Below are positions 14,575 to 48,371 of a stretch of 64,000 nucleotides of DNA, in pieces. How positions within the stretch are numbered: position 1 is the stretch's first letter; each line of letters starts with the position of its first letter. The notes under the pieces were generated by a model. It was not told the origin of the DNA and made no database searches. It saw nothing but the letters and a program-made list of their open reading frames with translations. The stretch spans positions 472-64,471 of the forward strand of contig JAPPHT010000020.1 of assembly GCA_028874795.1 (NCBI GenBank), given 5' to 3'. The DNA is from Chloroflexota bacterium (lineage in GTDB: Bacteria > Chloroflexota > Dehalococcoidia > Lucifugimonadales > Australimonadaceae). The position numbers were made by a program, and so were the translations under genes.

Positions 14575-14581
14575 CCTCTTA

Positions 14582-29889: not shown

Positions 29890-30190
29890 CACTTGATACC
29901 CGCCCCTTTCGCGATTGCCCCCTGACCCCTACGCTGGTTGCATGACTGTCGCACCGGCACCACCCATAGACCGCGTCTATAGCTCGCAGGCACAGCTATC
30001 GACGGCGTCTATGGTTCCGGTCCCAAACTTTGAAATCGATGGCCCCCTTGCCGCCTTAGACACGGAAGCAGGCCACGGCCTTGTAAACGCGCACATTAAG
30101 GTGGCCAAGGTGGCCAGATCGGCTGTCCGGTTTACTCGTGGACCGGCGACTAAGGTGGCCAGGATTCCGGGGTGTTGGCCCCCTTAACCA
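29890..30190 (+). other. conserved-spacing intergenic element, copy 1
   Basis: Blocks TACGCTGGTTGCATGACTGTCG (29930), CACCCATAGACCGCGTCTATA (29961), CCCAAACTTTGAAATC (30022), GGAAGCAGGCCACGGCCTTG (30064) and CCGGTTTACTCGT (30127). Copy-specific 9-mers are GGCCCCCTT (30041, 30177) and AAGGTGGCC (30098, 30107, 30152). Confidence 0.6.
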
Positions 30191-30296
30191 ATCCAGCCCG
30201 TCCCCGCCGATGGCGCGCCGCAGTCCAAGATGGCACACTTAACCAACGCTCCCACGCCCTGTGCGGCGGGTGCGCGAACACCGACAGGAGTACCGA

Positions 30297-31613
30297 ATGT
30301 CCGTCCCCCTCGAATCGAAAGTCTTCCCCATCACCACCGCCATCAGCGGCGACGGCCACCTGGAGATCGGCGGCTGCGACGTCACCGCGCTCGCCCGCGA
30401 GTTCGGGACGCCGCTCTACGTGTTCGACGAGGCGACGCTCCGCAACCAGGCGGAGGGTTTCCTGAATGCCTTCCGTTCCCGCTACGCCAACAGCCGCGTC
30501 GTCTACGCCTGCAAGGCCTTCGTCAACGTGCCGCTCGCGCGCTACCTCGCGGGCCTTGGCCTGGGGTTCGACGTGGTCTCGGGAGGCGAGATCGCCGTGC
30601 TACGCGCCGCCGGAGTCGACCTCGCCACGGTCGATTTCCATGGCAACAACAAGACGCCTGAGGAGATCAAGCAGGCCGTCGCATGGGGTGTCGGCCACTT
30701 CGTGATCGACAGCTTCCACGAGCTGCGCCTGCTGGATGAGGCCGCGGGCGCGGCCGGGTGCACGCAGCCGGTCCTCATCCGGGTCTCTCCTTCCATAGAC
30801 CCGCACACGCACCGCCTCACTACAACGGGAGTGCTCGACAGCAAGTTCGGCTTCCCCATCGAGACCGGCGACGCCGAGGAGGCGGTGAAACAGGTGATGG
30901 CTGCGCCCAACCTGGACCTGCGGGGCCTCCACTTCCATCTCGGATCGCCCATCTTCGAGTTGGAGCCGTACACCGAGGCGATCGAGCGCGTCATACGCTT
31001 CGCGGCCCGTATGGGAGAGTACGGTCTGGACATGCGGCGCTTCAGCCCCGGCGGTGGCTTCGCCATCGCCTACACGGAGGACGACGCGCCGCCCGCGATC
31101 ACCGACTACGCCGAAGCCATCGTGCAGGCCCTCACGGACGGCTGCGCCGCGAATGGCCTCCCGCAGCCCGAGTTGACCGTTGAACCCGGGCGCTCGCTCG
31201 CCGGTCCCGCCGGCGTCGCCGTCTACACCGTGGGCGCCATCAAGGACGTGCCCGGCGTCCGCACCTACGTCTCCGTGGACGGCGGCATGGGCGACAACAT
31301 CCGCCCCGCGCTCTACGGCTCCCGCTACATCGCCATCGCCGCCAACCACGCCAACGACGCAGCCACCGAGACCGTCACCATCGCCGGCAAGTACTGCGAG
31401 TCCGGCGACGTACTCGTTCACGACGCCTCGCTCGCCCCGGTTCGTGCGGACGACCTCATCGCCATTCCAGCGTCAGGCGCTTACGCCCCAGCCATGGCAA
31501 GCGTCTACAACATGAATGGACGCCCCGCCATCGTCATGGTCGGGGACGGCTCGGCCACGCTCATCCGCCGCCGTGAGTCCTACGAGGACCTCATCGCGCA
31601 GGATGTCGTCTGA
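30297..31613 (+). CDS. lysA: diaminopimelate decarboxylase
   Basis: PLP-dependent group IV decarboxylase layout (YACKAF, HFHLGS, EPGRSL, CESGD). ATG at 30297 with AGGAG upstream. Confidence 0.9.
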   Translation: MSVPLESKVFPITTAISGDGHLEIGGCDVTALAREFGTPLYVFDEATLRNQAEGFLNAFRSRYANSRVVYACKAFVNVPLARYLAGLGLGFDVVSGGEIAVLRAAGVDLATVDFHGNNKTPEEIKQAVAWGVGHFVIDSFHELRLLDEAAGAAGCTQPVLIRVSPSIDPHTHRLTTTGVLDSKFGFPIETGDAEEAVKQVMAAPNLDLRGLHFHLGSPIFELEPYTEAIERVIRFAARMGEYGLDMRRFSPGGGFAIAYTEDDAPPAITDYAEAIVQALTDGCAANGLPQPELTVEPGRSLAGPAGVAVYTVGAIKDVPGVRTYVSVDGGMGDNIRPALYGSRYIAIAANHANDAATETVTIAGKYCESGDVLVHDASLAPVRADDLIAIPASGAYAPAMASVYNMNGRPAIVMVGDGSATLIRRRESYEDLIAQDVV

Positions 31614-31616
31614 CCC

Positions 31617-32615
31617 ATGCTCAGCCTCCACGGCCAGCAGCTCCCCGTCCGGACCCTGGAACGGTCGCTCTCGGAAGGCCGTCTCCACCACGCATACCTG
31701 TTCATAGGACCGGCGCACCTGGGCAAAACCACGCTCGCGGTGCAGTTCGCACAGGCGCTGAACTGCGACGCGGACGCGCCTCCATGCGGCGCGTGCTCCG
31801 GTTGCACACGCATCGCCGAGGGCAACCATGCGGACGTGCGCCTCATAAGCCTCGGCGAGGAGGCAGGTTCCATCGGCATCGGCGCGGTGCGGGAGATCAT
31901 CAACTCTGCCCACCTGCGTCCCTACGAGGGGCGGACCCGCGTTTTCATCATCGCCGAGGCCGACCTGCTCACCCGGGACGCGGCCAATGCCCTGCTCAAG
32001 GTGCTCGAGGAACCCCCGGACGACGTGGTGCTCATACTCGTCGGCAATAGCCTGGACAACCTGCTGCCGACCGTCCGCTCCCGCTGCCAGACGCTCCACT
32101 TCCATCCCCTCTCGGTCAGCGAGGTCGCCCACATCCTGCAGGAAGAGCGCGGGGTGAGTCCGCAGCACGCCGAAGTGCTTGCGCGTCTCTCTCGGGGCTG
32201 CATCGGCTGGGCCCTCGCCGCAACCGGAGACGACACGATGTACGCGTCCGTGCACCAGCGGATCGAACAGATCGTCGATGCCATCGATGGCGGGCTTGAG
32301 GAGCGGTTCGCCTACGCAGGAGAGCTCGCGCGGCGCCTCGATCGCGACCGCGGCGCCGGGCGGGAGGAACTCCTCCTGTGGCTCCGGTGGCTGCGAGACA
32401 TCATGCTTGTGCAGCAGGGGAACGCCGCAGGCATAACCAATCTCTCCTGGCGCGAGGTCCTGGAAGGGCAGGCCGCCGCCCTGCAACCGGCTGATGTCGT
32501 CCGGTGGACCCACAACGTCAACCGGACCATCGAGGCCCTGGAGCGGAACGCCAATGTCCGGCTCGCTCTGGACGTCTTCATGCTGGAAGCCCCGCTCCTG
32601 AAGGCGGGGGCGTGA
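31617..32615 (+). CDS. holB: DNA polymerase III subunit delta-prime
   Basis: HAYLFIGPAHLGKTTLA Walker-like motif, zinc module CGACSGC, and the VFIIAEADLL and SRCQ sensor motifs. Confidence 0.85.
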   Translation: MLSLHGQQLPVRTLERSLSEGRLHHAYLFIGPAHLGKTTLAVQFAQALNCDADAPPCGACSGCTRIAEGNHADVRLISLGEEAGSIGIGAVREIINSAHLRPYEGRTRVFIIAEADLLTRDAANALLKVLEEPPDDVVLILVGNSLDNLLPTVRSRCQTLHFHPLSVSEVAHILQEERGVSPQHAEVLARLSRGCIGWALAATGDDTMYASVHQRIEQIVDAIDGGLEERFAYAGELARRLDRDRGAGREELLLWLRWLRDIMLVQQGNAAGITNLSWREVLEGQAAALQPADVVRWTHNVNRTIEALERNANVRLALDVFMLEAPLLKAGA

Positions 32616-32656
32616 CAGGAAGCCGGATGCGTGCTCTGCCGCTGCCCAGCGACAGG

Positions 32657-33259
32657 CTACGCGTGAACGAGCGCCTCGAATCCACGCTCTGTGATGTGGC
32701 GCTTCTGCGCCATCCACGGCAGGTAGATGCTCCACTCGTCCGGCAGGCTGCGGTGCATGAGGTGATAGTAGGGGTTTGCCTTGGGTGGCATGGGCTCGCG
32801 CAGCAGCCGCATGTTCGCCTGCGCGGGCGTGCGCCCGGCCTTGCGGTGGTTGCACGGAACGCAGGCCGCGACGACGTTCTCCCACGTATGCGGACCGTTG
32901 AGCACACGAGGCACGACGTGGTCGAGGGTCAGGTCTCGCGTCTGCTTGCCGCAGTACTGGCAAGAGAACTGGTCGCGCCAGAATACCTCCCGCCTGGACA
33001 GACGGCGTGTGAACAACGGGCGCTTGACCATGTAGAGCAGCCGTATGACTGAAGGGATGGGGAAGCTCTCATACACGGAGTGGTACTCGCCGCTTCCCAG
33101 CTCCAGGGGCTGTGCTTTCTGCCCCAGTACGAGGAGCAGCGCGCGCCTCACGCCGCAGACGTTCAACGGCTCGTAGTTCTGGTTCAGGATGAGGACCGCC
33201 TCGGCCAGAGCGTCTCCTCCTTGCGAGACCACCGTCAGTGGAGAGGCCCGCTCTCGCAA
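32657..33259 (-). CDS. HNH endonuclease domain protein
   Basis: CQYCGKQ...LTLDHVVPR...NVVAACVPCNHRK beta-beta-alpha-metal motif. Confidence 0.75.
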   Translation of the reverse strand: MRERASPLTVVSQGGDALAEAVLILNQNYEPLNVCGVRRALLLVLGQKAQPLELGSGEYHSVYESFPIPSVIRLLYMVKRPLFTRRLSRREVFWRDQFSCQYCGKQTRDLTLDHVVPRVLNGPHTWENVVAACVPCNHRKAGRTPAQANMRLLREPMPPKANPYYHLMHRSLPDEWSIYLPWMAQKRHITERGFEALVHA

Positions 33260-33324
33260 TCATAAGAGGGCAGGGGAGCGCACGGCAACCTCCATCCGTT
33301 AACCGGAGGAGCACGTCCCGGCAG

Positions 33325-33834
33325 CTACGCTTCTCCCGGGTCGGCGAACAGCGAGGTTCGGATATCGAACTCCGCAGGCATGAGCCCGCGCAGGAAAGAG
33401 GTCCCGTCCAGGAGGATGTCCGCAACCAGTGACTCCCGCAGGGCCTCCTGCACCTCTTCCACCGGTATGGCGTCCATCGCCAGGACCAGCGCGGACGCGC
33501 CCAGCAGGCCGACGAGCAGGCCAACGGCCATCCCGACGCCCCTGTCGACCCAACCGAGCATGAGGATGCTCAGCGTCGCCTTGATCGCGCGTCCGAGCAC
33601 CCACGCCCCTACTACCACGGCGGCCAGGATGACGACGAACGTGATGAACTGCCGAAGGCCGTCGCTGTCGACCATCGGGATGGCCCAGTCGAGCGTGTCG
33701 TAGAGCCTGCTGGCGAGGAAGAGTCCGACGATGAACCCCAAGAAAGTGAACAGCCACTTGATGACGCCGTTCACCCAGCCAAGGAATCCTCCGGCGACCA
33801 GCAGGAACAGGATGAGCAGGTCTATCAGGTTCAT
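33325..33834 (-). CDS. CvpA-family membrane protein
   Basis: 169 aa with four hydrophobic segments and MNLIDLLILFLLVAGGFLGW start. ATG at 33834 lies within the longer spurious ORF. Confidence 0.65.
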   Translation of the reverse strand: MNLIDLLILFLLVAGGFLGWVNGVIKWLFTFLGFIVGLFLASRLYDTLDWAIPMVDSDGLRQFITFVVILAAVVVGAWVLGRAIKATLSILMLGWVDRGVGMAVGLLVGLLGASALVLAMDAIPVEEVQEALRESLVADILLDGTSFLRGLMPAEFDIRTSLFADPGEA

Positions 33835-34042
33835 CACCCGTCCCTGTTCGGGATCGCCTCTGGACGAGGCATGGAACTGGCCTCCCACTATGCACGCGCG
33901 GCGTTCCGCCTTCAACGAGGTAGCGGTGCGTGCTTCCGGGAACCCGTCCCGATGCGATGAATCCGCACCGAAGCCAGGGGCGTAGTGCCGTGTAGCGCGC
34001 TTGAAGAGACCGTTGGAATCGCAACCGAAGGAGGCAACATCC

Positions 34043-34507
34043 ATGCGCAAGAGATGGCTGGTAGTCCCCGCCCTGGCGGCCCTGCTCCTGACCGGAGTCA
34101 TCGCGGGGACGGCATTCGCCCAGGACGGATCGTCAGACGACGATTCCAGGGTGTCCCGTTTCGTGGAGATCCTCGCCGGGAAGCTCGGCATCGGCGAAGA
34201 GGAGCTCCAGACGTCGGTGGACGAGACGATGGAGGAGTTGCAGGCCGAGCGGAAGGCGGCCTGGGAGCAGCGCCTGCGTGACAAGCTGGCCGCGATGGTC
34301 GAGGAAGGGAAGGTCACCCAGGAACAGGCGGACGAGTACCTGGACTGGTACCTGGATCCACCCGAGATCGCGCGCGGTGACTCACGCGGGAGGTTCGGCT
34401 TCGGGAAGGGCCACCACCGCGGCATGCGCGGCGGGTTCTCGGGACGTGGCCGGATGCATCGGGGAGGAGACTCCGGTGAGACGTCATCGGACGCCGTCGC
34501 TTCCTGA
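34043..34507 (+). CDS. secreted hypothetical protein with Gly/Arg-rich tail
   Basis: MRKRWLVVPALAALLLTGVIAGTAFA signal peptide, GGAGG upstream, helical acidic core and GRFGFGKGHHRGMRGGFSGRGRMHRGG tail. Confidence 0.5.
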   Translation: MRKRWLVVPALAALLLTGVIAGTAFAQDGSSDDDSRVSRFVEILAGKLGIGEEELQTSVDETMEELQAERKAAWEQRLRDKLAAMVEEGKVTQEQADEYLDWYLDPPEIARGDSRGRFGFGKGHHRGMRGGFSGRGRMHRGGDSGETSSDAVAS

Positions 34508-34530
34508 GCGGGAGCAACCACCGCCACGAG

Positions 34531-34555
34531 GAAGGGGCGCTCGGTGCGCCCCTTC
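34531..34555. terminator. GC-rich hairpin between convergent genes
   Basis: GAAGGGGCGC-TCGGT-GCGCCCCTTC, a 10-bp stem. Confidence 0.55.
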
Positions 34556-34588
34556 TCCATGTCCGCCGATGATGGGCAGGAGCCGGTC

Positions 34589-35518: not shown

Positions 35519-35519
35519 C

Positions 35520-35891
35520 TCAAGCGGTGGCGGCGAAGGAAAGGATATCGATGCCGCGCGAGACCTCGGTCATCTCCGCGTCGGTCGATTCGAGTCCGGC
35601 GATGATGAGTCGGGCGGCTTCGATGGGGTTGAAGTTCTCGCCGCAGGTGAAGATGTCCACGGCGGCGTAGGAGAACTCGGGCCAGGTATGGATGCACAGG
35701 TGGGACTCGGCGATGGCGACGACGCCGGTAACTCCCTGGGGGCTGAACTGGTGGAAGATCTTGCCTATAACAGTTGCGCCGGTTTCCTCGGCGGCACGAA
35801 GCATCATGCCTTCCAGCAAGGGAAGGTCATCGAGCGATGCGGGGTTACAGGAGCGGAGCTCCAGCAGAACGTGGCGACCCAGCGCTTCCAA
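35520..35891 (-). CDS. speH: S-adenosylmethionine decarboxylase proenzyme (small bacterial/archaeal type)
   Basis: GRHVLLELRSC..., the VAIAESHLCIHTWPE self-cleavage ES site and DIFTCG. Stop is 2 nt before the speE start. Confidence 0.85.
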   Translation of the reverse strand: MEALGRHVLLELRSCNPASLDDLPLLEGMMLRAAEETGATVIGKIFHQFSPQGVTGVVAIAESHLCIHTWPEFSYAAVDIFTCGENFNPIEAARLIIAGLESTDAEMTEVSRGIDILSFAATA

Positions 35892-36526: not shown

Positions 36527-36544
36527 GCCCCTAGGCGAGTCGGC

Positions 36545-37822: not shown

Positions 37823-39031
37823 ATGCGGATACCTCTGCTCACTCCAGCCATTGCCCTTCTCCTCGTCGCCCTCGCGACGACGGTTAGCGTCGCTTGCGCG
37901 GACGAACCGGTGATCGTCCCTCCCCAGCTCAACACACCGACGCCACTGCCGACACCCACGGCCACGCCTACCGCCACTCCCACTCCTACGGCGACGCCCA
38001 CGGCGACCCCAACCGTGACGCCCACGCCCACGCCGACGCCGACGCCCACCCCGACCCCGACGCCTACGGCGACGCCTACCCCGACTCCGTTGCCTGCAGC
38101 CACGCCCACGCCTACGGCCCTGCCGCCCGGAGTCGCCTCTGATGCCGCCAAAGGGGCCATGGTAAGGCTGCTCATCAACGAGCAGGTCTGGACAGGCGCC
38201 GTCGTCAGCGACAGCGGTGAGATATTGACCACGTCCAGCGCTCTGGGTAGGGCTCCGATGGTGAACTACGTCCTGGCCAACGGAACGCAGGGAGAGGCAT
38301 GGGTGGTTGGCAGAGACGACGACGCAGGCCTGGCCCTGCTCCGGCCTCTCGTCGAGTCGCCCCCGTACGACTTCGTCCAGCTCTCCCCGGACGCCCCCAC
38401 CATCGGCGACGGGCTCACGTTGCTCCAGCACTCCGGTTTCTCAACCGCGCTGGACCAGCGGCCCACCTCCGTAAGCGGCTACAAGCCCGGGATACTCGGC
38501 TACAACTACATGCAGATCAACGCCGCCGACAACGCCACTGCGGATGGCGCGATGCTCATAGACAGCTTCGGAAGGATCCAGGGCATCCGCATGCCGTCTG
38601 TATGGCTGTTGCAGCACCAGATAGCCAATCCCAATGAGGTCTACGCGGTGGACGCGGCCCAGGTTGGAAACGCCGCTGTACCTTCGCTGAGAGCAGGGCG
38701 CTACCACGTCGAGGCTCGCCCGCAGACCGGCGAGATCGGGACGATCCCGCCTATCCCCATCATCTTCAACGGGCACATCACCATAGACGGTGTGGACGCG
38801 ACCCAGGGGACTCCGATCTACGCCAGGCTGCGGAAGGCCGGCGAGCGCGACCACTGGATCGATGACACCGTCGAGGACCTTGGGTTCTACATCCTCAACG
38901 TCTCTGCGCCATCCAACAGCTATGACGGCGCCATCGTGGAGTTCTGGACCAACGGCAGACTCGCGGACCAGAGAGGGAACTACAGTTTCCAGCCGCAGGG
39001 CGAACAAGTGAGGTTGGACCTCGCGTTCTAG
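37823..39031 (+). CDS. secreted trypsin-fold (HtrA-like) homologue without catalytic His/Ser, with Thr/Pro linker
   Basis: Signal/TM segment and about 60 aa of (T/A)P repeats. The protease-like core is WTGAVVSDSGEILTTSSAL...DDDAGLALLRP...NATADGAMLIDSFGRIQGI. Confidence 0.5.
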   Translation: MRIPLLTPAIALLLVALATTVSVACADEPVIVPPQLNTPTPLPTPTATPTATPTPTATPTATPTVTPTPTPTPTPTPTPTPTATPTPTPLPAATPTPTALPPGVASDAAKGAMVRLLINEQVWTGAVVSDSGEILTTSSALGRAPMVNYVLANGTQGEAWVVGRDDDAGLALLRPLVESPPYDFVQLSPDAPTIGDGLTLLQHSGFSTALDQRPTSVSGYKPGILGYNYMQINAADNATADGAMLIDSFGRIQGIRMPSVWLLQHQIANPNEVYAVDAAQVGNAAVPSLRAGRYHVEARPQTGEIGTIPPIPIIFNGHITIDGVDATQGTPIYARLRKAGERDHWIDDTVEDLGFYILNVSAPSNSYDGAIVEFWTNGRLADQRGNYSFQPQGEQVRLDLAF

Positions 39032-39143: not shown

Positions 39144-40364
39144 ATGCGGAAGAACCTGCGCATTCCAACTGCAGTCGTCCTCGCGGCGATCTTCGTGCTG
39201 GCGCTCGCCGTCGCCTACGACGGTTCCCGCGAAGAGACCCCCGCGCCCGAACCAACCCCCACGCCGGCGGCAACACCGACGCCGACTCCCACGCCTACCG
39301 CGACGCCCACTCCCACGCCGACGGCGACGCCGACTCCCACCCCGACGCCGACGCCTACCCCCACTCCGACACCGACACCCACGCCTACTCCGACGCCTAC
39401 GCCCACGCCTGTCCCCACACCGACACCTGAGCCAACTCCGGAGCCGATGCTGACGCTGGAGGAGGCCGCGGAGCGGTCCAGGAACGCCATCGTGGAGCTC
39501 TCCGTCGGCGACACCATCTGGACCGGCGCGATCGTCAGCGAAAGCGGGGAGATCATCACCGCAGCTTCCCCGCTGGGGAACTCGCCGCAGGTCTCCTTCA
39601 CGCTCGCGGACGGCACGGAGGGCGTGGCATGGGTGACGGGCAGGAGCGACGAACAGGGGCTGGCGCTGCTAAGCCCGCTCGGCGAGCCCCGCACCTACGA
39701 CTTCCTGGAGCTCTCTTCCGACATCCCGACCATCGGCGAACGGATGGTGCTCATGCAGTACGACCCGTTCGACGGGATGCTGGACCCGCGCCCGGTCACC
39801 GCCAGGGGGTTCATCTTCTCCTTCCTCGGCTACGGCTTCATCCAGCTGCACATCGGTGAGACTTCCGCCTTCGACGGCGCGGCCGTTGTCAACGACAAGG
39901 CCGAGCTGCAGGGTGTGCGGATGCCTGCCCCCTGGCTGACCGCAAGGGGCATCGGCGAGCCCAGGGAGGTCTACGCGGCTGCCGCGTCCGACATCGCGAG
40001 CAGGCTCATACCGCAGCTCCGGACCGGGTACACGCAGATCAGTCCTCCACCGGAGGACACCATCGGTCCGGCGGGCCCGCCTCCCCAGATCCCCATCGTG
40101 TTCATCGGCAACGTCACGGTGGGCGGCGAGCCCGCGCTCCCCGGCTCACGGCTGTATGCGAAGGTGAGCAAGGAGGGACGTCCCACGCTCTGGTTCACCC
40201 AGCAGGTTTCGAGACTGGGCGAGTACGACCTCCCCATATCGTTGAACGTCGCCACGTACCTCGGGGCAACCATCGAGTTCTGGATGGACGCGGAAGCCTC
40301 TCTCGTCACAGCGGAAGTCACCCGCAAGGACAACAATACGCACTCCCTGGACCTGGCGTTCTAG
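39144..40364 (+). CDS. paralogue of 37823..39031 (inactive trypsin-fold protein with Thr/Pro linker)
   Basis: Same architecture: [19 protein letters not shown]...[10 protein letters not shown]...[19 protein letters not shown]. It has a shared C-terminal domain ending LDLAF. Confidence 0.5.
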
Positions 40365-40372
40365 TCCGCGCC

Positions 40373-41620: not shown

Positions 41621-41665
41621 CGGACCTCTCGCGCAGAACGGGGTACGGTTCATTATAGGCGTTGG

Positions 41666-41935
41666 CCCGTCGTTCCTGCGGAGGCCCGCGCTCCCGCCCG
41701 GTCCCTTCCCCCTTGACGGGGGAAGGTCAGGATGGGGGTGAACCTGAGCGGTGTCCCCCTTGTCATGCTGAGCGGAGCCTGCGCTTCTGCGCGCAGCATC
41801 CTCTCGGGTACCGGCACCCCCTCCCTCGGGGAGAGGTTAGGTAGAGGGTGAACTGGGGATGGCGGAGTGGCGTTGCGATGAGTTCCCACCCTCTCCCTCG
41901 GGGAGAGGGTGCCGCGCCAGCGGCGGGTGAGGGCG
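41666..41935. repeat. palindromic repeat cluster (truncated B, A, F-like, two C-like units)
   Basis: GTCCCTTCCCCCTTGACGGGGGAAGGTCAGGATGGGGGTGA at 41701, TTGTCATGCTGAGCGGAGCC at 41761, and CCCTCGGGGAGAGG variants to 41935. Confidence 0.8.
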
Positions 41936-42111: not shown

Positions 42112-44409
42112 GTGCATACCCTTCTCGAAAAGGTGCGTGGCTATCTCCCCGGCGATCGCGCGGAGATGATCGAGCGGGCGCTCGATTTCGCCACGGACGC
42201 GCACGAGGGGCAGAAGCGCCGCTCCGGCGAGGACTACATCCAGCACCCCATCTCCGTCGCCGAGTACCTCGCCGACCTCAATCTCGACGCCCCGACCATA
42301 GCCGCGGCGCTCCTGCACGACGTCATCGAGGACTGCGACGTGACCGCCGACGACCTCCGCGCGGAGTTCGGCGACGACGTGGCGAAACTGGCCGACGGCG
42401 TCACCAAGCTGACCCGCATGGACACCATCACCGGCGATGCAGAGCCGCTCGTCGCCAGGACCGACAGCGAGGCGGAGAGCCTGCGGAAGATGCTCGTCGC
42501 GATGGCCAACGACATCCGCGTCGTCCTTATCAAGCTGGCGGACCGGATGCACAACATGCGCACGCTCCACGCCCTGCCGCCGGACCGGCGCGTCGCCATC
42601 GCGCAGGAGACGCTGGACATCTACGCGCCGCTCGCTCACCGCCTCGGCATGGGCGAGGTCAAGTGGCAGCTGGAGGACCTCGCCTTCCGCTACATCCAGC
42701 CGAACCAGTACCGGAGCATCTCCAGCCTGCTCGCCACCAAGCGCACGGAGCGTGAGTCCTACGTCAAGCAGGTGACCGGCGTGCTCCGGGACGAACTCGC
42801 GAAGGCGGGCTTCGATGCCGAGGTGACGGGCCGCCCCAAGCACATCTACAGCATCCACCGCAAGGCCCAGTCCTACGCCGCGCAGGGGAAGCAGATGAGC
42901 GACATCTACGACCTCTTCGCGGTGCGCGTGCTCGTCAACACGGTCCAGGACTGCTACGGCGTGCTCGGCCTGGTGCACTCGATCTGGCACCCCGTCCCGG
43001 GCCAGTTCGACGACTACATCGCGAACCCCAAGGAGAACATGTACCAGTCGCTGCACACGACGGTGCGCTCCATCGACGGGCTGCCGGTGGAGGTGCAGGT
43101 GCGCACGCACGAGATGCACCGCATCTCCGAGTACGGCGTCGCGTCGCACTGGAGCTACAAGGAGGGCGGCGCGCGGAGCAGCCAGTTCGAGGAGCGGATG
43201 ACGTGGCTCCGCCAGCTGTTGGAATGGCAGCGCGATGTGAGCATGACGGACGAGTTCCTGGAGAACGTCACCGGAGACCTGTTCCGGGACCAGGTGTTCG
43301 TCTACACGCCGAAGAACGAGGTGCGCGAATTGCCGGCGGGCGCGACGCCTATCGACTTCGCGTACCGCATCCACACCGAGATTGGGCACCGGTGCATCGG
43401 CGCGAAGGTGAACGGCAGGCTCGTCGCGCTCAACACCCCGCTCAAGAACGGCGACACCGTGGAGGTGCTGACCAGCAAGGTGGCGCGCGGGCCGAGTCTG
43501 GACTGGCTGAACCCGCACCTGGACTACGTGAAGACGGCGAGCGCGCGGCAGGCGATACGCTCCTGGTTCAGGCACCAGGAGCGCGGAACGAACGTCGAGC
43601 GCGGGCGTGCCATCCTCAAGAAGGAGCTGAAGCGCCTCTCCGCGCAGGTGGACGAGGCCGAGGTCGCCCGCTGGTTCCACTACGATTCCATCGACGACCT
43701 GTACGCGGCGATCGGCTCCGGCCTCGTGACGGTGGCCCAGATCGCGGGACGCCTCTCCGCGGCCCAGCAGGCAACGGAGCGCACGCTCCCCCGGGGCATG
43801 CCGGACACGACGGACGAGCCCGTCCTCGGCAGCGTCAGCGTCCTCGGCGTCGGCGACCTCCTCACCCGCATGGGCGAGTGCTGCAACCCGCTGCCGGGCG
43901 ACGAGATCGAGGGGTTCGTCACCCGCACCCGGGGCGTCACCGTCCACAAGGTGGACTGCCCGAACGTCCGCAACGTCAGCGAGACGGACCGCATCGTGCC
44001 CGTCACCTGGGGACAGAGCCGGAACGTCTACCCCGCCCGCATCATCGTCGAGTGCTTCGACCGCGTGGGCCTGCTGCACGACATCACGGGCGCGACCTCC
44101 GCCGAGCACGTGAACATCGCCGGCTCCCTGACGGAGCCCATGGAGGGCGGCATGGTCGTCATCCACCTCAACGTGCAGGTGACGAGCATCGAGCAGCTCT
44201 CCCGTCTGTTCACGCGGATCGAGGGCGTGCGCGGCGTGCGAGGCGTCAGCCGCACGGCCCAGAAACCGCCCCCGAAGTCCGCATCGCGCAACAACGCCTC
44301 TTCCCGCAACGGCAACGCGCCTCGTAACGGCGCAGGCAGCCGGAACGGGGCCAGCGCCCGCAACGGCAAAGCCCCGTCCCGTCGCAACGCCCGCTCCTCG
44401 CGCAACTAG
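42112..44409 (+). CDS. rel: bifunctional (p)ppGpp synthetase/hydrolase (RelA/SpoT homologue)
   Basis: HD hydrolase (HDVIEDC), synthetase (YQSLHTTV) and TGS and ACT regions. GTG at 42112 lies 6 nt after a TATAAT (42100..42105). It has an Arg/Asn/Gly-rich C-terminal tail. Confidence 0.9.
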   Translation: MHTLLEKVRGYLPGDRAEMIERALDFATDAHEGQKRRSGEDYIQHPISVAEYLADLNLDAPTIAAALLHDVIEDCDVTADDLRAEFGDDVAKLADGVTKLTRMDTITGDAEPLVARTDSEAESLRKMLVAMANDIRVVLIKLADRMHNMRTLHALPPDRRVAIAQETLDIYAPLAHRLGMGEVKWQLEDLAFRYIQPNQYRSISSLLATKRTERESYVKQVTGVLRDELAKAGFDAEVTGRPKHIYSIHRKAQSYAAQGKQMSDIYDLFAVRVLVNTVQDCYGVLGLVHSIWHPVPGQFDDYIANPKENMYQSLHTTVRSIDGLPVEVQVRTHEMHRISEYGVASHWSYKEGGARSSQFEERMTWLRQLLEWQRDVSMTDEFLENVTGDLFRDQVFVYTPKNEVRELPAGATPIDFAYRIHTEIGHRCIGAKVNGRLVALNTPLKNGDTVEVLTSKVARGPSLDWLNPHLDYVKTASARQAIRSWFRHQERGTNVERGRAILKKELKRLSAQVDEAEVARWFHYDSIDDLYAAIGSGLVTVAQIAGRLSAAQQATERTLPRGMPDTTDEPVLGSVSVLGVGDLLTRMGECCNPLPGDEIEGFVTRTRGVTVHKVDCPNVRNVSETDRIVPVTWGQSRNVYPARIIVECFDRVGLLHDITGATSAEHVNIAGSLTEPMEGGMVVIHLNVQVTSIEQLSRLFTRIEGVRGVRGVSRTAQKPPPKSASRNNASSRNGNAPRNGAGSRNGASARNGKAPSRRNARSSRN

Positions 44410-44419
44410 CGCCCCGTCG

Positions 44420-44712
44420 GGTCCCTTCCCCCTCGACGGGGGAAGGCTAGGATGGGGGTGAACTCCCGGGCGTGGCGCGGGGCCTTGTCATGTTGAGCGG
44501 AGCCCGGTGGCGAAGCCGAGGGCGCAGTCGAAACATCTCTCAGGGGCCTGGTCCCTTCCGCCTCGACGGGGGAAGGCTAGAGCCTGCCCCGCACTTGATG
44601 CGGGGATGGGGGTTGAACTCCCGGGCTTGGCGCCGGGGCCTTGTCATGTTGAGCGGAGCCCGGTGGCGAAGCCGAGAACGCAGTCCTGCGCTTGAGCGCG
44701 CAACATCCTCTC
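44420..44712. repeat. tandem duplicated A-F composite repeat
   Basis: Copies at 44420..44545 and 44549..44712. The second A unit carries an insertion. F units read TTGTCATGTTGAGCGGAGCCCGGTGGCGAAGCCGAG... Confidence 0.85.
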
Positions 44713-44831
44713 AGGGAACGTCTGCCTGCTCTGAGCATCTCTGGATCAAGAGCGCTTGGCGGGTGCTTTCCTGTAACTGTCGGATTCTGACGGTTCTGCA
44801 CGAGTATCACTCCTGAGACGGCCTTTCCGGC

Positions 44832-44911
44832 TCGACAGCCGGACCCCGCCGTCCGACAGGGAACCCGGCAGAAACCGACAGCGATCCGACACTTTCCGAC
44901 ATATTCCGACA
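44832..44911 (+). repeat. iteron-like array of six (T/C)CGACA words with helical phasing
   Basis: TCGACA at 44832 and CCGACA at 44853, 44875, 44886, 44896 and 44906. Spacings are 21, 22, 11, 10 and 10 nt. Confidence 0.6.
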
Positions 44912-45061
44912 CCCCTCTCGAAGCGGCCCCTGGCTTCCACCTGCAAACGCGCGCAGGCGAACGCCGCCCGTCGCATGACAGCGTACGCCGGAGTGGGACG
45001 ACTGCGTAAGGGGCGCGTGTCACTAGTGTTGGAAGGCAGTTTGGAATGGCGCGAAGAGGAA

Positions 45062-45742
45062 TTACCTCATCTGATCAATCAGACTCTCCACCGTATCCAG
45101 GAAGGCAGGATCATACTGTTCGTCTACGTGGTTACTGTTCCACAGGCCCGACCGCTTGACCTTCTCGCGGTTGCAGTAACAGCCCAGCCAGTCCTGCGAC
45201 GGAGGGTCCACTGGTTCCTTGTCGTAGTTGCTGAGCAAGGCAATCGCGTTGCGTTCGATGTAGCCTCGTAGGCTGTCCGGCCCCGGCTCGTCGTCCACCG
45301 CAAGCCAGAGCAGGTACATGTTGCCTATCGTTGCGCTGGCAACGTCTTCCAAGTCCCTCTCGGCCTCCCTGACCTCTCTGGGCGCAGAATTACCTCGCCC
45401 CCAGGACGGGCAAACCCAGCCACCCCGCTTCATCAAGGCAGTCCCCACGATCTTCCTGAAGACAGACAGTCTATTTGTGCCGCTGCGGTGCTGACGAAGA
45501 CGGTCCCACAGGGTGGCGCGAGAACCCTTCTTCAGGGCGTGTGTTCCCACTCGAACGATGCGGGGGCCTGTGCCTGTGTCGCTCCGGTTCTCGCCGGATT
45601 CCTGGAAGAAATAGACGCCTCGGGCTGGCCAGCCTGTGCGCACAGAGCAATCCGACAGCCTGCGAGGTCCGTTGGTCTTCTTTTTCGCTAGCATGGTCAG
45701 CAAGTTGTAGAAGCGCTTGAGGTCATGGGTGCGGTCGCTCAT
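45062..45742 (-). CDS. GIY-YIG-like nuclease family protein
   Basis: GVYFFQE...RIVRVGTHA...LWDRLRQH...YIERNAIALL, as in a widespread bacterial GIY-YIG-like family of unknown role. Start is 45742 (GAGAGG upstream) or 45763. Confidence 0.5.
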   Translation of the reverse strand: MSDRTHDLKRFYNLLTMLAKKKTNGPRRLSDCSVRTGWPARGVYFFQESGENRSDTGTGPRIVRVGTHALKKGSRATLWDRLRQHRSGTNRLSVFRKIVGTALMKRGGWVCPSWGRGNSAPREVREAERDLEDVASATIGNMYLLWLAVDDEPGPDSLRGYIERNAIALLSNYDKEPVDPPSQDWLGCYCNREKVKRSGLWNSNHVDEQYDPAFLDTVESLIDQMR

Positions 45743-45786
45743 CGTGTTCAACCTCTCGTTCATGGTGCACTTCAAGACGGCACAGG

Positions 45787-46068
45787 TTAGTAGACGATGT
45801 TGGGGTCGTCGCTGTACTCGAACGGTGGATCGACGCCCAGCAGTTTGGCATCCATGTTTTCTATAGCGCCCGCCACGTAGTGCATTCCCGGGGGAAACGT
45901 CGGAACCCAGAGGAGATCCAGGCACGCGTCATCCAGAAGCACCGTGATGCTCTCCTCATCAACTTGCTTCGGATTGTCAACGACCCTCCAGTTACCCTCG
46001 TCGTCGACGGTTACAATAGCCCCCATGACCTCCAGCTTGTAGATGCGACTCTTCTCTTCAGTCATCAA
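45787..46068 (-). CDS. hypothetical protein (93 aa)
   Basis: AGGAGG 5 nt upstream of the ATG at 46068. Acidic, with no recognisable motif. Confidence 0.45.
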   Translation of the reverse strand: MMTEEKSRIYKLEVMGAIVTVDDEGNWRVVDNPKQVDEESITVLLDDACLDLLWVPTFPPGMHYVAGAIENMDAKLLGVDPPFEYSDDPNIVY

Positions 46069-46151
46069 GCACCTCCTGCTCGTAGTTCATAGCGGAAGAC
46101 ACAATTCCTCCCTATACCCGATCAGCCTCCCCTCCAGATGGAAGGGTCACG

Positions 46152-47108
46152 TTATCGACCCAGTGGGAGTTCCCCCGTGATGCGCCCCTTGAACTTGCCG
46201 TGGTCCCAGCCGAACTGGAAGATCGCCATCTCGATGTCGCGGAGGTACCAGCGACCGCCGCCTCGTGGCGCGGGCCGTTCCAGTTCTTTCGCAATGTGCT
46301 CGCAGAATCTGATGAACTGCTCGTAGCTCTTCACCTTCTTGCCACCAATCGTGAAGTCGCGCAAGCAAGCCTTGGCGATCTCGTCCCAGATAGGGGCACT
46401 CTCAGGAGAGCGCATCGCCAGCGCCTTAGTGCCGAATGAATCGCTACAGTACTTGAGGCGTTTCAACTCCTCCAACGCTCGTACCGGGTCTCCATCTGCG
46501 AGCACAGAGAAGGCGGCTTTCATCTGTTCTTGAATCTCATCACTAGAGTTGTTCTTCTTGATCTGAGCAAACAGATTGTGGCCGCGACCGCCTCCCCAGC
46601 GATAAACAATCTCAAGGTCATCCTCTGGATGGATAAACTCGTCTTTCCCTTTCAGTTGCTCGATGAGACTCTCAACCCTTCGGTGACTCTGCTCGCAAAG
46701 TGATTCCTCCAAGCACGGATTCTTCCAATCCCTTTGGATGAAGGCTTCCACCTTGAAGACACACATGTTGTTTTCCAAGTACTTGTCGCGCCATTCAGGC
46801 ACTTTCTGGATGAAGGCTTTGATAGATGTTCCGCTAAGGTTGTCTGCCATGCTAATCTCCTCCAGTGGTGTCCTCCGTCGTCCTGTAAGAACACGCTCCC
46901 AGGTTGCTACGAGTGCTTGCCTCCTCAGCTCCTTGATGTCTGTACCCACAGTCTGCGTTGATCTCCTCGTCTGGATTGGTCCAATGCCAGCCTTTCGGAG
47001 TGTCCCAGCGCATGACGTGCAGTACCGGTATTCTTCCGATCTTTCTATGCCTGATTCAAACTTCTCTTCGCAGCCCATGCAGGTGTAGGTGACCTTACGA
47101 CTCGTCAT
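46152..47108 (-). CDS. Zn-ribbon plus OGG-fold (8-oxoguanine DNA glycosylase-fold)-like protein
   Basis: N-terminal CMGC...CTSC ribbon. The C-terminal IVYRWGGGRG...LKRLKYCSDSFGTKALAMRSPESAPIWD...LRDIEMAIFQFG resembles the family annotated as OGG-fold proteins. GAGGAGG lies upstream of the ATG at 47108. Low GC. Confidence 0.5.
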   Translation of the reverse strand: MTSRKVTYTCMGCEEKFESGIERSEEYRYCTSCAGTLRKAGIGPIQTRRSTQTVGTDIKELRRQALVATWERVLTGRRRTPLEEISMADNLSGTSIKAFIQKVPEWRDKYLENNMCVFKVEAFIQRDWKNPCLEESLCEQSHRRVESLIEQLKGKDEFIHPEDDLEIVYRWGGGRGHNLFAQIKKNNSSDEIQEQMKAAFSVLADGDPVRALEELKRLKYCSDSFGTKALAMRSPESAPIWDEIAKACLRDFTIGGKKVKSYEQFIRFCEHIAKELERPAPRGGGRWYLRDIEMAIFQFGWDHGKFKGRITGELPLGR

Positions 47109-47110
47109 GC

Positions 47111-47317
47111 TTACTGCTCCTCCTCTCCGAACAGGCGCTTGAGCAACGTTTGAGCGTCCTGAATGATTTCGCAGGCTATGCGAAGAACCCAGGCCCCGAA
47201 CGCAGCCATAACAAGCCAGTAGACCCACGTCGTCGGCTTCAACGTCTCCAGATCCATCGTCATGAATGCACAGATCCACAACACGCCGAAGACCGCTATG
47301 TTCCTGAGACAGTGCAT
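47111..47317 (-). CDS. small two-TM membrane protein (68 aa)
   Basis: AGGAGG upstream of the ATG at 47317 and two hydrophobic helices. Its stop abuts the next gene start. Confidence 0.45.
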   Translation of the reverse strand: MHCLRNIAVFGVLWICAFMTMDLETLKPTTWVYWLVMAAFGAWVLRIACEIIQDAQTLLKRLFGEEEQ

Positions 47318-47409
47318 CGCTTACGCACCTCCTGTTCACCGTATCGAGGCTTGTCCTGCGCCGACGCTTCGAGGCACTCGCGAAGCGCGTCTGATCTCGC
47401 CGTATCGAC

Positions 47410-47911
47410 CTACTCTGCTTCCTCCGCACCCCCCTCGCGCTGCTCCCGTTCCAGCCGTTGCCTTCTAACCTCGTGCAGCCAGTTGTGACTCTCGTCGTCT
47501 GTCAGGTCGATCACCGGCGGCTCTTTCCGCAATGGGCCGTCCACCGCTCCACACAGGTCGCAGTAGTAGTCGGCTGGCAGCGAGCCTCCGTCCACCGATG
47601 CCCGGCGGGCCTGCCTCCCTTCCTGGCCCTCGCAGCGCGGGCATGGGGCAGACGTGCGCCAAGACGTGGATGCCAGCAGCCGCTTCGCCTCGGTCAGGGC
47701 CGCGATGACCTCGTCCAGTTCACTCGGATGGACCACTACCCCCCTCTCGGTCGGGTAGGAGAGCTCCCTCAGCGGAGGCAGCCACCACTCGCGGATGTGT
47801 ATCCCCCGGACGAAATGACTGCCGCGAGCAACGATGGCTCACTCGGAGTTCAACATTGGCGACGAGTCCTTCCCGGGGGATGCGTGCAATGATGGTCTCT
47901 TGTTGTGGCAT
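47410..47911 (-). pseudogene. PC4/YdbC-like ssDNA-binding domain fused to a Cys4 ribbon, read in two frames (1-nt shift near 47839)
   Basis: ATG at 47911 with AAGGAG upstream gives MPQQETIIARIPREGLVANVELRV. Skipping nt 47839 continues AIVARGSHFVRGIHIREWWLPPLRELSYPTERGVVVHPSELDEVIAAL...CPRC...CDLC in the frame of ORF 47410..47736. Confidence 0.35.
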
Positions 47912-47957
47912 GTGGCGCTCCTTCCCTTCGGGCAAATCAAGACAAAAAGAATGAAAC

Positions 47958-47988
47958 ATTATATCAGAATTGGAGGTGGATTTGTCAA
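47958..47988 (-). promoter_or_regulatory. strong sigma70-type promoter for the minus-strand accessory operon
   Basis: On the minus strand: TTGACA (47988..47983), 19-nt spacer, TGATATAAT (extended -10; hexamer at 47963..47958). An inverted repeat GGAGGT-N10-ACCTCC (47972..47993) overlaps the -35. Confidence 0.6.
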
Positions 47989-48065
47989 CCTCCTTGAGGC
48001 AACACACGGAGTTGGGGCAGGCGTAAGCAGTCGACCGTAGAAGCAGGGCAACCCGCCCTTGGCCC

Positions 48066-48366
48066 CCACTGACATCCGCCCCTATCGCGGTCGGCACTCG
48101 ATTGCGTACGCTGGTTGCGTGACCGTCGTTCGGACAGCACCCATAGACTGCGTCTATATCTCGGGGCCCAGCCATAGATATGGTCTATGGGTCCGCCGCC
48201 CAACTTTTGAATTCATTGCACACCTTGTTCACTTGTTGCGGGAAGCAGGCCGTGGCCTTGCGCAGAGCGGCGCAAGGTGCTCAAGATGCTCAAATCGAGC
48301 CCCCGGTTTACTCGTAACGCCGGCAACAAGGTGCTCAGAATTCGAGGGCGGTTGCACACCTTGTTC
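48066..48366 (+). other. conserved-spacing intergenic element, copy 2
   Basis: Same five blocks as copy 1, at 48107, 48138, 48199, 48241 and 48303. Block-to-block distances are 31, 61, 42 and 62, against 31, 61, 42 and 63 in copy 1. Copy-specific 9-mers are GCACACCTT (48218, 48354), AAGGTGCTC (48274, 48328) and AAGATGCTC (48283). Confidence 0.6.
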
Positions 48367-48371
48367 AGGCT

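Follow-up and report, generated by a model that had tools for sequence, protein, structure and literature searches.

Two copies of an intergenic cassette

The window analysed here, a 64,000-nt stretch of contig JAPPHT010000020.1 from a Chloroflexota bacterium, contains two complete cassettes of one body type (type A), the second of which lies convergent with an ion-transport gene, without a co-oriented gene downstream, and is followed directly by a hairpin of a kind found 3′ of 11 of 45 type A elements.

29894..30189, + strand: copy 1, complete type A cassette between a CMD-family gene and lysA
48070..48366, + strand: copy 2, complete type A cassette (word subfamily GCACACC/GGTGCTC)
48368..48400, + strand: REP-like hairpin (GTTCCTGC-CTCC-GCAGGAAC; repeat pairs I8-I12) directly 3′ of copy 2

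All five conserved blocks described in the first-pass annotation were found in both copies on the + strand, among them TACGCTGGTTGC (29930 and 48107 in copies 1 and 2, respectively), CACCCATAGAC (29961 and 48138), GGAAGCAGGCC (30064 and 48241) and CCGGTTTACTCGT (30127 and 48303). No block occurs elsewhere in the window, and the chance expectation from shuffled sequence is 0.00 occurrences of block 1 and 0.12 of block 4. The copy-specific 9-mers lie where they had been described: the flanking (F) and inner (I) words are GGCCCCCTT (30041, 30177) and AAGGTGGCC (30098, 30107, 30152) in copy 1, and GCACACCTT (48218, 48354), AAGGTGCTC (48274, 48328) and AAGATGCTC (48283) in copy 2. Counted from TACGCT, copy 1 has them at 111/168/177/222/247 and copy 2 at 111/167/176/221/247, offsets that agree to within 1 nt.

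The cassettes belong to a large non-coding family

A covariance model of the 3′ half scored 150.4 bits on copy 1 (30032-30201) and 115.9 bits on copy 2 (48209-48378), and matched at least 59 sites (51 + 8), these two included, in 1.4 Mb of DNA from related Dehalococcoidia/SAR202 genomes, of which approximately 45 are full length and in which the word positions are conserved. One of the related loci, L029, is the syntenic orthologue of copy 2. The cassette is approximately 300 bp long with sharp edges; paralogues at unrelated loci share similarity over one stretch only, from TGACAC to a point about 300 nt further on, and two copies within one genome are 95% identical in unrelated flanks. No match to the element was found in Rfam, as had been supposed, or in plasmids, phages and viral contigs. 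Copies 1 and 2 are thus members of a large, undescribed, lineage-specific family of non-coding cassettes in Dehalococcoidia/SAR202 bacteria.

The non-coding assignment, also made at first pass, was borne out by the alignment. A small, possibly leaderless, protein could be imagined to start at the conserved ATG or GTG located 7 nt past TACGCT, which is present in 41 of 42 elements and is followed by 15 codons free of indels. However, substitutions are spread over the codon phases without bias (258/233/223), the length of most gap runs is 1 mod 3, the open frame from this start ends anywhere from codon 8 to beyond codon 98, and at the word arrays the copies are in different frames, making a protein product exceedingly improbable.

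A promoter-like signature at the 5′ end

Conservation begins sharply at TGACAC with a near-invariant 24-nt block, upstream of which none is seen.

29894..29917, + strand: 5′ block of copy 1 (TGATACCCGCCCCTTTCGCGATTG), conserved and interpreted as an upstream promoter element (approximately -49 to -26)
29930..29935, + strand: TACGCT, the -10-like hexamer of copy 1 (T-A-N-N-N-T at a fixed offset from the block)
48070..48112, + strand: candidate promoter of copy 2, block 48070-48093 and TACGCT 48107-48112

A pattern search located the block at more than 114 places in Dehalococcoidia/SAR202 metagenome-assembled genomes, and a T-A-N-N-N-T hexamer stands at an offset of 37 ± 1 nt in 118 of 121 blocks (background 0.25%), in seven variants that all keep T1, A2 and T6. 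The block is not confined to these cassettes and is found in front of ordinary genes and of other non-coding bodies as well. At the ordinary genes, block and hexamer lie 91-184 nt upstream of real start codons, short leaders with no room for another promoter, and we read the block as the probable promoter of these genes. By position, transcription would start near 29942 (the A of GCATGAC) in copy 1 and near 48119 in copy 2. Two observations count against the explanation favoured below: the '-35' position is TTWCGC, which matches no known consensus, and some downstream genes, as at L105, L032 and L074, have a good sigma-70-like promoter of their own directly behind the element.

Copy-specific words form the strands of two helices

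Downstream of the hexamer the cassette was resolved into four paired parts, PA, PB, PC and PD.

29963..30013, + strand: PA, two conserved palindromes, CCATAGAC-N3-GTCTATAG and CTATCGAC-N3-GTCTATGG, with centres approximately 32 nt apart
30022..30038, + strand: A/U-rich junction CCCAAACTTTGAAATCG joining the 5′ and 3′ domains (CAACTTTTGAA in most members)
30041..30057, + strand: F1a and F1b words (GGCCCCCTT, GCCGCCTT), 5′ strand of helix PB
30064..30083, + strand: near-invariant apical hairpin GGAAGCAGGCCACGGCCTTG capping PB, with three pairs constant or nearly constant
30098..30115, + strand: I1 and I2 words (AAGGTGGCC twice), Shine-Dalgarno-like, 3′ strand of helix PB
30127..30146, + strand: PC, small hairpin displaying the conserved GGTTTACTCGT
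30152..30185, + strand: PD hairpin, I3 word (AAGGTGGCC), loop of 12-13 nt, F2 word (GGCCCCCTT)
48218..48362, + strand: 3′ domain of copy 2 (F1a 48218, apical hairpin 48241-48260, I1 48274, I2 48283, PC 48303-48315, I3 48328, F2 48354)

Across members, 79.2% of cells in the proposed helices are paired, compared to 66.8% in shuffles and 31-48% in slid controls. Changes on both sides occur at 39 of 50 pairs (18 of 21 in PB and all 16 in PD) and amount to 346 cells against 147.5 in shuffles, a value reached in none of 500 shuffles; folding z-scores were -2.9 and -3.4. The 9-mers are not the free specificity segments proposed at first pass: they make up the opposing strands of the long helices PB and PD, and this explains why the F and I words are near reverse complements at fixed offsets. 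PA is conserved in sequence with weak covariation, and the PC helix is only 55.7% paired. The site in copy 2 equivalent to the A/U-rich junction was flagged as terminator-like, and no U-run lies 3′ of PD, leaving the 3′ end of a putative RNA undefined.

The F words resemble an anti-Shine-Dalgarno sequence and the I words (CAAGGNNNCC) resemble Shine-Dalgarno sites. Word sets are kept within subfamilies, words of like orientation stay alike within an element (the difference between I2 and I3 is 1.24 of 9 positions), and at a syntenic orthologue the same dinucleotide had changed in all five words, in agreement with the concerted change noted earlier. Such change may have arisen by template switching in quasi-palindromes, a purely mutational route. 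A search of 950 kb of related DNA found no targets for the words beyond the elements, and the words showed no complementarity to the start region of the downstream gene.

The same features could belong to duplex DNA, with a promoter leading into arrays of operators for DNA-binding regulators, in which the two ATAGAC-N3-GTCTAT palindromes and the oriented words would be binding sites, each word subfamily would correspond to a regulon and the fixed geometry to a common nucleoprotein architecture. This reading, which we regard as unlikely, is favoured by the absence of strand signal in helix mismatches (interior G.U versus A.C, 19 versus 19 in PD and 30 versus 30 in PB), by PA palindromes that are conserved rather than covarying and stand approximately three helical turns apart, and by I words that all changed alike and F words that all changed alike without becoming complementary to each other. 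The minus strand also folds as well as the plus strand (z = -2.92), which counts against an RNA. Conversely, arms of 12-24 bp that reach past the word (e.g. L050) far exceed operator half-sites, the 8-9 nt word period of type A is no helical repeat, a one-base bulge is conserved in PB, the elements have no linked regulator gene, and one conserved scaffold would require many different regulators.

Other units behind the same 5′ block

Two further units in the window carry the block in front of a different body.

13333..13600, + strand: type B body upstream of an SDR gene, block 13333-13356, TACCAT as the -10-like hexamer
44770..45022, - strand: type D body (repeat pair I7), block 45022-44999, TACGCT 44985-44980

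The first had been taken for a third, diverged copy (13329-13600). Its 5′ block (13333-13356 plus TACCAT) is indeed shared, but its body is of a different type, in which Shine-Dalgarno-like motifs precede three decamer words. Word arrays lie at 13436-13463 (TGGCACC/TGTCACC) and at 13520-13547 (GAGACC), and the unit has orthologues with the same flanking genes at L005, L012, L019, L037, L041 and L077. The fourth unit, missed at first pass, repeats a TGTCGGA word five to six times in an array at 44912-44852 on the minus strand.

These sister body types bear on the RNA and DNA readings in both directions. Three direct decamers at an exact spacing of 10 + 10 nt in 39 of 49 cases suit operators, TGTCACC-N3 repeated three times in one sister type resembles Pho boxes, and one motif occurs in either orientation depending on body type (CAGGAGTG in some, CACTCCTG/CACTCGTG in type A). 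However, in the sister types a covarying long-range helix closes a loop around the word arrays, an arrangement better suited to RNA than to duplex DNA.

Elements mostly precede co-oriented genes and vary in presence

A co-oriented gene starts 0-200 nt past the 3′ end in 35 of 42 type A elements (83%) and in 90 of 115 elements of all body types, whereas co-orientation of the upstream gene is seen in only 44%. The genes behind elements are non-homologous (lysA, LeuRS, NAD kinase, amidohydrolases, dehydrogenases), and no protein gene, of the kind whose linkage had been suggested as a check, was consistently present at the elements or related loci. At the copy 1 locus, the same gene pair occurs in related genomes with no element between the two genes; at lysA a conserved proximal region is retained in genomes lacking it, indicating that the cassette is dispensable.

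Presence and absence within the same gene pair, together with the sharp edges, unrelated flanks and 95% identical copies, would also suit a dispersed repeat that is selfish or neutral, a mosaic comparable to REP/BIME or MITE elements, in which promoter block and hairpins are spreading, recombining modules, effects on neighbouring genes are incidental and concerted word changes reflect template switching or repair in quasi-palindromes instead of selection for specificity. Modules are evidently exchanged, L008 and L030 sharing flanks and 5′ half with different 3′ halves and L080, L087 and L061 carrying another 5′ domain; the host genome abounds in other REP-like hairpins, the words are almost confined to elements and mismatches are symmetric between strands. 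We nevertheless consider a mere repeat improbable. There are no terminal inverted repeats, target-site duplications or nearby transposase/RAYT genes, the orientation bias is specific to the downstream gene, and purifying selection is indicated by unpaired motifs (GGAAGCAGG, ACTCGT, the 24-nt block, T1/A2/T6), which show strong conservation in genomes that share 83-93% identity with the window in syntenic DNA.

Comparison with known systems

REP/BIME of enterobacteria, BOX of pneumococci and Correia elements of Neisseria are mosaic intergenic repeats. Like these, the cassette is extragenic, modular and hairpin-forming, has shuffled modules, can provide neighbouring transcripts with promoters or long RNA hairpins and varies in presence among related genomes. 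It differs from Correia elements in lacking terminal inverted repeats and TA duplications, and from REP in being much longer, and it has a strong downstream-gene orientation bias, an invariant promoter block at one end only and conserved unpaired motifs. Attenuators are leader RNAs with mutually exclusive helices, and TRAP and HutP read repeated leader motifs. Shared with such leaders are the position upstream of a co-oriented gene, the reuse of strand sequence in more than one helix, a U-run after a hairpin and, in sister types, three identical single-stranded looped words. The strand order F, I, I, I, F is not the classical 1:2/2:3/3:4 scheme, however, no terminator follows PD, no binding protein is known, and the words, of 7-9 nt, vary by subfamily.

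Reused or 'mobile' promoters are highly similar upstream regions found before unrelated genes (PMC3575422), and the cassette resembles them in its near-identical upstream sequence (45-300 nt), -10-like hexamer, non-homologous genes and several copies per genome and across genomes, but adds a 250-nt conserved hairpin scaffold, several body types and subfamily-specific word sets. The bridge RNA of IS110 is encoded beside its recombinase, and its two internal loops contain separate guides for target and donor (PMC11208160, PMC11208158); both it and the cassette are structured, non-coding and approximately 200-300 nt long, with copy-specific short segments at fixed positions. This geometry, noted at first pass and confirmed here, is what would commend a programmable guide RNA of a mobile element (IS110 bridge RNA or IS1111 seekRNA type) whose words pair with target and donor DNA and so direct recombination. 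That reading is close to refuted: recombinase, transposase and reverse transcriptase genes are absent beside all four window units, no such gene is consistently near related loci, the words are absent elsewhere in the 950 kb, and a single word is used five times and pairs with itself, unlike the bridge RNA's four different guides matching flanking DNA.

A model for the cassette

The explanation we favour, at about even confidence, is a dispersed, self-contained, structured non-coding RNA cassette of approximately 300 bp with its own promoter. The 24-nt block and the T-A-N-N-N-T hexamer 37 nt from the block start would form the promoter, with transcription beginning approximately 7 nt past the hexamer and yielding an RNA of about 250 nt in which PA (two palindromic hairpins, then a U-rich stretch) precedes PB (the long helix of two words, with the invariant GGAAGCAGGCC hairpin as its cap), PC (a small hairpin showing ACUCGU) and PD (a terminal hairpin of 12-16 bp). 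We infer that the cassette is transcribed, from these start sites, and that it acts in cis. Further points against this explanation are the dispensability of the cassette at lysA, the absence of a U-run 3′ of PD, and word targets that were found neither in trans nor in cis.

Within an element the F words are alike and the I words are alike, so that PB and PD would be able to exchange partners. Against this, with the F1 array kept unpaired in silico, partners were exchanged in one of five elements and PD persisted in three. We speculate that the 3′ domain is a strand-exchange switch, its outcome set by a subfamily-specific factor that recognises the words. Standing 0-200 nt upstream of a co-oriented gene, most cassettes would add a second, distal promoter and a long structured leader to that gene, and a minority, including copy 2, would be free-standing, in the manner of small-RNA genes.

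A dispersed cassette with several body types

The five conserved blocks that the first-pass annotation had described in copies 1 and 2 are all present in both copies and occur nowhere else in the window, and the 9-mers lie at the fixed offsets claimed for them, namely 111, 168, 177, 222 and 247 nt from TACGCT in copy 1 and 111, 167, 176, 221 and 247 nt in copy 2. The relatedness of a "third copy" held for the first ~45 nt, which a three-way alignment showed to be common to all three, and the remainder is a body of another kind (type B). A repeat search of the window located the 24-nt 5′ block at one further place, 45022 on the minus strand, giving a density of about one unit per 16 kb.

Cassette units in the window
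29894-30189 (+): copy 1, complete type A cassette before lysA
48070-48366 (+): copy 2, complete type A cassette
13333-13600 (+): third copy, 5′ block with type B body
44770-45022 (-): fourth unit, 5′ block with type D body

The fourth unit consists of the 5′ block and TACGCT, followed by five to six copies of TGTCGGA at 10-11 nt spacing and then one inverted copy (TCCGACA); three loci from related genomes (L076, L055, L098) are similar.

A degenerate form of the 5′ block (TGAYAYSCGCCCCTWWCGCRRTYG) was found in more than 114 places among the matches listed, many per genome. Nearly all of the matches listed come from Dehalococcoidia, SAR202 or Chloroflexota MAGs, the syntenic stretches of related MAGs being 83-93% identical to the window, and the lone out-of-group match among them, in Novosphingobium, looks like chance. 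Viral contigs searched with the 5′ block and plasmid and phage collections searched with copy 1 gave no match, and a metagenome scan with GGAAGCAGGCCNNGGCC gave chance matches only (L115-L194), none of which fits the 3′-domain covariance model described below. No description of such elements was found in the SAR202/Chloroflexi literature searched.

Several types of body lie downstream of the 5′ block. Type A has 42 strict matches, copies 1 and 2 among them. Bodies of types B-D have a GC hairpin and, ahead of three decamer words, an SD-like motif that reads AGGAGTG, AGAGGTG or ACGAGTG. Each of the words begins A/G/T-TG, and their spacing is an exact 10 + 10 nt in 39 of 49 cases.

The cassette is related to no curated RNA family, and the body-type leaders are not in Rfam. 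In line with the first-pass annotation, which could match the element to no RNA family, Rfam (release 15) gave 0 matches at gathering thresholds across the whole window; at E ≤ 1, the sole match in three related loci (types A, B and C) was weak, unrelated and elsewhere. There are no tRNAs in the window. The claim that the element is non-coding was likewise upheld: substitutions showed no codon-phase bias, indels were mostly not multiples of three and no stop was conserved, and a small ORF or protein-coding gene was rejected on all three counts.

The 5′ block resembles a promoter

Sequence conservation begins sharply at (G/C)TGACAC; the positions before it carry no information, and a hexamer is positioned at offset 37 ± 1 in 118 of 121 blocks (TANNNT background 0.25%). 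The seven hexamer variants (TACGCT, TACCAT, TACCCT, TAACCT, TAAGCT, TACGAT and TAGGCT) share an invariant T1, A2 and T6. At L054/L097, L036, L067 and L034 a real start codon with a Shine-Dalgarno site follows the block at 91-184 nt, and the preceding gene ends just before the block, which leaves no room for another promoter. Two properties of a promoter with a TANNNT-type -10 were thus observed, T1/A2/T6 at a fixed position and a location that would suit a gene's sole promoter. On account of the sharp conservation edge, the fixed hexamer and the short leaders, we read the block from its sequence as an upstream promoter element that would span about -49 to -26, taking the hexamer for a -10, and we infer transcription, which would begin close to the GCATGAC that type A conserves. 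No recognisable -35 (TTGACA) lies at 17 ± 1 nt; the -35 position is occupied by TTWCGC, which is not known to fit any consensus. An ECF-type reading of the block and a sigma-54 reading of the TGGCAC words were both dropped by eye due to unsuitable spacings.

A good sigma-70-like promoter (TTGACA, 17 nt, TAGTGT) is present at 13650-13686, just before an SDR gene, and its spacer (CCCGCCCC...TCGCGG) is similar to the cassette 5′ block. This likeness hints that the block may have originated from an ordinary promoter.

Reused or mobile promoters are recognised by highly similar upstream sequence before non-homologous genes (PMC3575422), and this was observed here, the downstream genes spanning many unrelated Pfam families and similarity between paralogous cassettes being limited to the element itself.

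Predicted fold of type A

The anatomy of type A was derived from an alignment of the 42 elements together with single-sequence folds.

Parts of the type A cassette, 5′ to 3′
PA: two palindromes, CCATAGAC-N3-GTCTATRG
Junction after PA: A/U-rich, CAACTTTTGAA
PB: strands F1a + F1b (flanking words) pair with I1 + I2 (inner words); near-invariant cap GGGAAGCAGGCCRYGGCC...CCC
PC: small hairpin displaying GGTTTACTCGT
PD: inner word I3 pairs with flanking word F2; stem 12-16 bp, loop 12-13 nt

In 36 of the 42 elements the span running from GGAAGCAGG through ACTCGT measures 75-77 nt. A covariance model for the 3′ domain (172 positions, 50 pairs) gave 51 matches in 830 kb and 8 in the remaining loci; within the window it matched only the two known copies. 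In the model-fitted alignment 79.2% of cells were paired, compared to 66.8% in shuffles and 31-48% with slid partners, and changes on both sides were seen for 39 of 50 pairs (18/21 in PB and 16/16 in PD). PB and PD therefore show compensatory changes beyond both shuffled and slid controls, as a generic test for structured RNA asks. PA is conserved in sequence with slight covariation and is weakly supported as a helix; PC is 55.7% paired across members. RNAalifold on the raw MAFFT whole-element alignment returned just 8 pairs, because the words are out of register in that alignment, and was replaced by anchored analyses and the covariance model.

Two RNA identities found no support at this level. 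In a CsrB/RsmZ-type sponge RNA many GGA motifs are placed in hairpin loops, whereas the AAGGA-like words of type A are in helix strands. The likeness of GGAAGCAGGCC to the SRP RNA motif GGAAGCAGCC is taken as coincidental, there being no Rfam SRP match and a different surrounding helix.

The words are helix strands that change together

The 9-mers are helix strands, which explains their near reverse complementarity and fixed offsets. Pairing alone is insufficient, since the I words are as close to one another as to the complement of F2 (differences per 9 positions of 1.24 for I2 vs I3, 1.34 for F2 vs I3 and 1.76 for F2 vs I2). Certain helix mismatches are also kept from genome to genome. One position in the GGCCCCC subfamily has C in I1, T in I2 and G in I3, and in the GCACACC subfamily the I words have GTGCTC where the complement of F is GTGTGC. 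Joint change of all five words, proposed from the window copies, was seen directly in L029, the syntenic orthologue of copy 2, which shares the ion-channel gene, the REP hairpin and a scaffold of ~89% identity; the same dinucleotide is altered in five of five words (CA/GC in both F words, CT/GC in three I words). At least six word classes are found in more than one genome, and several occur within single genomes.

As RNA, the I words (CAAGGNNNCC) resemble Shine-Dalgarno sites and the F words (e.g. CCTCCTTGG, CACCTTG) the 3′ end of 16S rRNA. A search for trans targets in 950 kb of related DNA found none, the 10-mers being nearly confined to elements (CAAGGGGGCC, 22 of 24 occurrences inside elements). 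The F2 arm showed no specific complementarity to its own downstream start region (cognate -21.2 kcal/mol vs non-cognate -20.2; permutation p = 0.06). When the F1 array was kept unpaired in silico, PB and PD exchanged partners in one of five elements and PD persisted in three.

The words may be a specificity code read by some factor, operator sites on DNA, or the outcome of concerted repair within quasi-palindromes. It is conceivable but unlikely that the cassettes are word-addressed riboregulators, in which a common promoter and RNA scaffold carry interchangeable sets of 7-9 nt words. Matching trans factors (paralogous RNA-binding proteins or partner RNAs) would then read the words, each word class would correspond to its own regulon within the catabolic gene families that are expanded in SAR202/Dehalococcoidia, and a change of address would need one dinucleotide to be altered in all words, as between the window and L029.

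Structure as RNA or as duplex DNA

Evidence that the structure is selected as RNA is mixed. In favour are the promoter-like signature, the way the element is oriented toward the downstream gene, stems well beyond operator half-site length (some extending past the word) and a single-base bulge that is conserved in PB. Types B-D add a long-range helix (e.g. GCAGAGG...CCTCTGC or GTAGGAGTGG...CCACTCCTGC) with covarying flanking bases, which encloses the three words in a ~60-nt loop. Against it, interior G.U pairs equal A.C mismatches in number (19 vs 19 in PD, 30 vs 30 in PB), so that G.U tolerance far above A.C, the strand-specific signature of RNA, was not seen, and the minus and plus strands fold equally well. 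Two further points count against RNA and suit proteins that bind duplex DNA: the decamers repeat every 10 nt, and one motif is used in both orientations.

Arrays with an exact 10-nt period (TGTCACC-N3 x3, TGAGACC-N3 x3) are found at 13436-13547 and in L003, L019, L043, L058 and L077; these type B arrays resemble the operators, made of direct repeats, that OmpR/PhoB-type regulators bind (Pho box). An SD-like AGGAGTG comes before each array and pairs with CACGCCTG ~60 nt downstream.

Genomic placement and variation

The downstream gene is co-oriented in 90 of 115 cases over all body types (35 of 42 for type A) and usually starts 0-200 nt past the element; the upstream gene has no comparable orientation bias. 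Downstream Pfam families include Amidohydro_2 (20), SDR, Zn-ADH, CinA, LeuRS, cupin, isochorismatase, biotin carboxylase, NAD kinase and LysA. A consistently linked protein gene, suggested as a possibility in the first-pass annotation, was not borne out, as no gene family recurs beside the related loci and none is linked upstream. The window neighbours carry CMD, LysA, Ion_trans, RelA/SpoT, SDR, ADH and LLM domains, and no transposase, recombinase or reverse transcriptase was found among them.

One word subfamily occupies unrelated loci, with similarity running from TGACAC to ~300 nt downstream, and two copies in the same genome are 95% identical. Modules are also swapped: L008 and L030 have orthologous flanks and an identical-type 5′ half with differing 3′ domains, and L061, L080 and L087 join a word-array 5′ domain to a type A 3′ domain. 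In L099 and L059 the CMD-gene/lysA pair has a REP-like element where the cassette would sit; the cassette is thus an insertion/deletion polymorphism and lysA is independent of it. A REP hairpin lies directly 3′ of the element in 11 of 45 cases, copy 2 included.

The lysA-proximal 90 nt (30207-30297; GATGGCGCG...AGRTGGCACACTTAAC...CAGGAG) is kept in four genomes with or without a cassette (also L059, L071, L099) and may be lysA's own regulatory region. It holds one isolated ATGGCACAC word of the type B array kind.

Three mobile-element readings of the cassette were rejected. An IS110 bridge RNA or IS1111 seekRNA was rejected because the required adjoining IS110-family recombinase gene is not present at the window units and the variable segments pair mutually in PB and PD; in those RNAs two internal loops match the target-site and element-end flanks, whereas the cassette words recur neither in the flanks nor elsewhere in the 950 kb searched. 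A MITE was rejected since the cassette ends (TGACAC... and ...CTTGGTCG) form no terminal inverted repeat, no target-site duplication is visible and paralogue flanks have nothing in common; for the empty-site comparison, the position is held by the REP-like element in L099 and L059. A retron-like reading lacks both a linked gene and the defining anatomy.

Other features of the window

45025-48066: 3-kb low-GC stretch (54-60% vs about 67%) filling the exact gap between the outward-facing 5′ blocks of units 4 and 2; all ORFs on the minus strand, one with a weak OGG-like match and the rest without Pfam match
51000-62000: second low-GC region (48-64%) with genes for an NYN-domain protein, a 647-aa protein that weakly matches DNA methylases, a 1208-aa ResIII helicase-like protein and a DUF6226 protein
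37900-38170 and 39210-39480: N-terminal linkers of two adjoining trypsin-like peptidase genes, encoded by long Pro/Thr-rich (ACNCCN) repeats
21812-24380: two adjoining, slightly overlapping Rieske/LigXa-like oxygenase paralogues, ~75% identical at their 5′ ends
8445-8598, 9692-9893, 11967-11999, 13224-13285, 13696-13754, 14572-14687, 41665-41741, 44412-44700 and 48368-48400: REP-like hairpins

The stretch at 45025-48066 has the appearance of an insertion that came between a pair of back-to-back cassettes, and 51000-62000 is probably a restriction or defence island. The REP-like intergenic hairpins belong to several families (e.g. CGTCGTTCCTGCGGAGGCAGGAACCTCGC, CCCTTCCCCCTCGACGGGGGAAGG) and are often clustered in both orientations; one family frequently sits immediately after type A elements. 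Paralogue expansion of the kind seen at 21812-24380 has been reported from SAR202 genomes.

Significance

The best-supported reading is that the cassette is a dispersed, promoter-led, non-coding element with a predicted transcript whose long helices are made from one repeated word. Most cassettes would act as an extra promoter and structured leader for the next gene, and some stand alone. If the cassette is no more than a selfish mosaic repeat, it remains of use as a marker and illustrates how promoters spread. The joint change of words would represent either a specificity code or a clear case of concerted evolution by palindrome repair. The SAR202/Dehalococcoidia hosts are little-studied, uncultured bacteria that abound in soil, in sponges and in the deep ocean. 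Should the cassettes be transcribed, many genes in these bacteria would be run from a single, unusually long and near-invariant promoter sequence joined to structured leaders that form a modular set. This would provide a natural case of several helices in one RNA that share, and jointly change, a short word, and would offer a new promoter class and a way into the gene regulation of a lineage where almost nothing is known of it.
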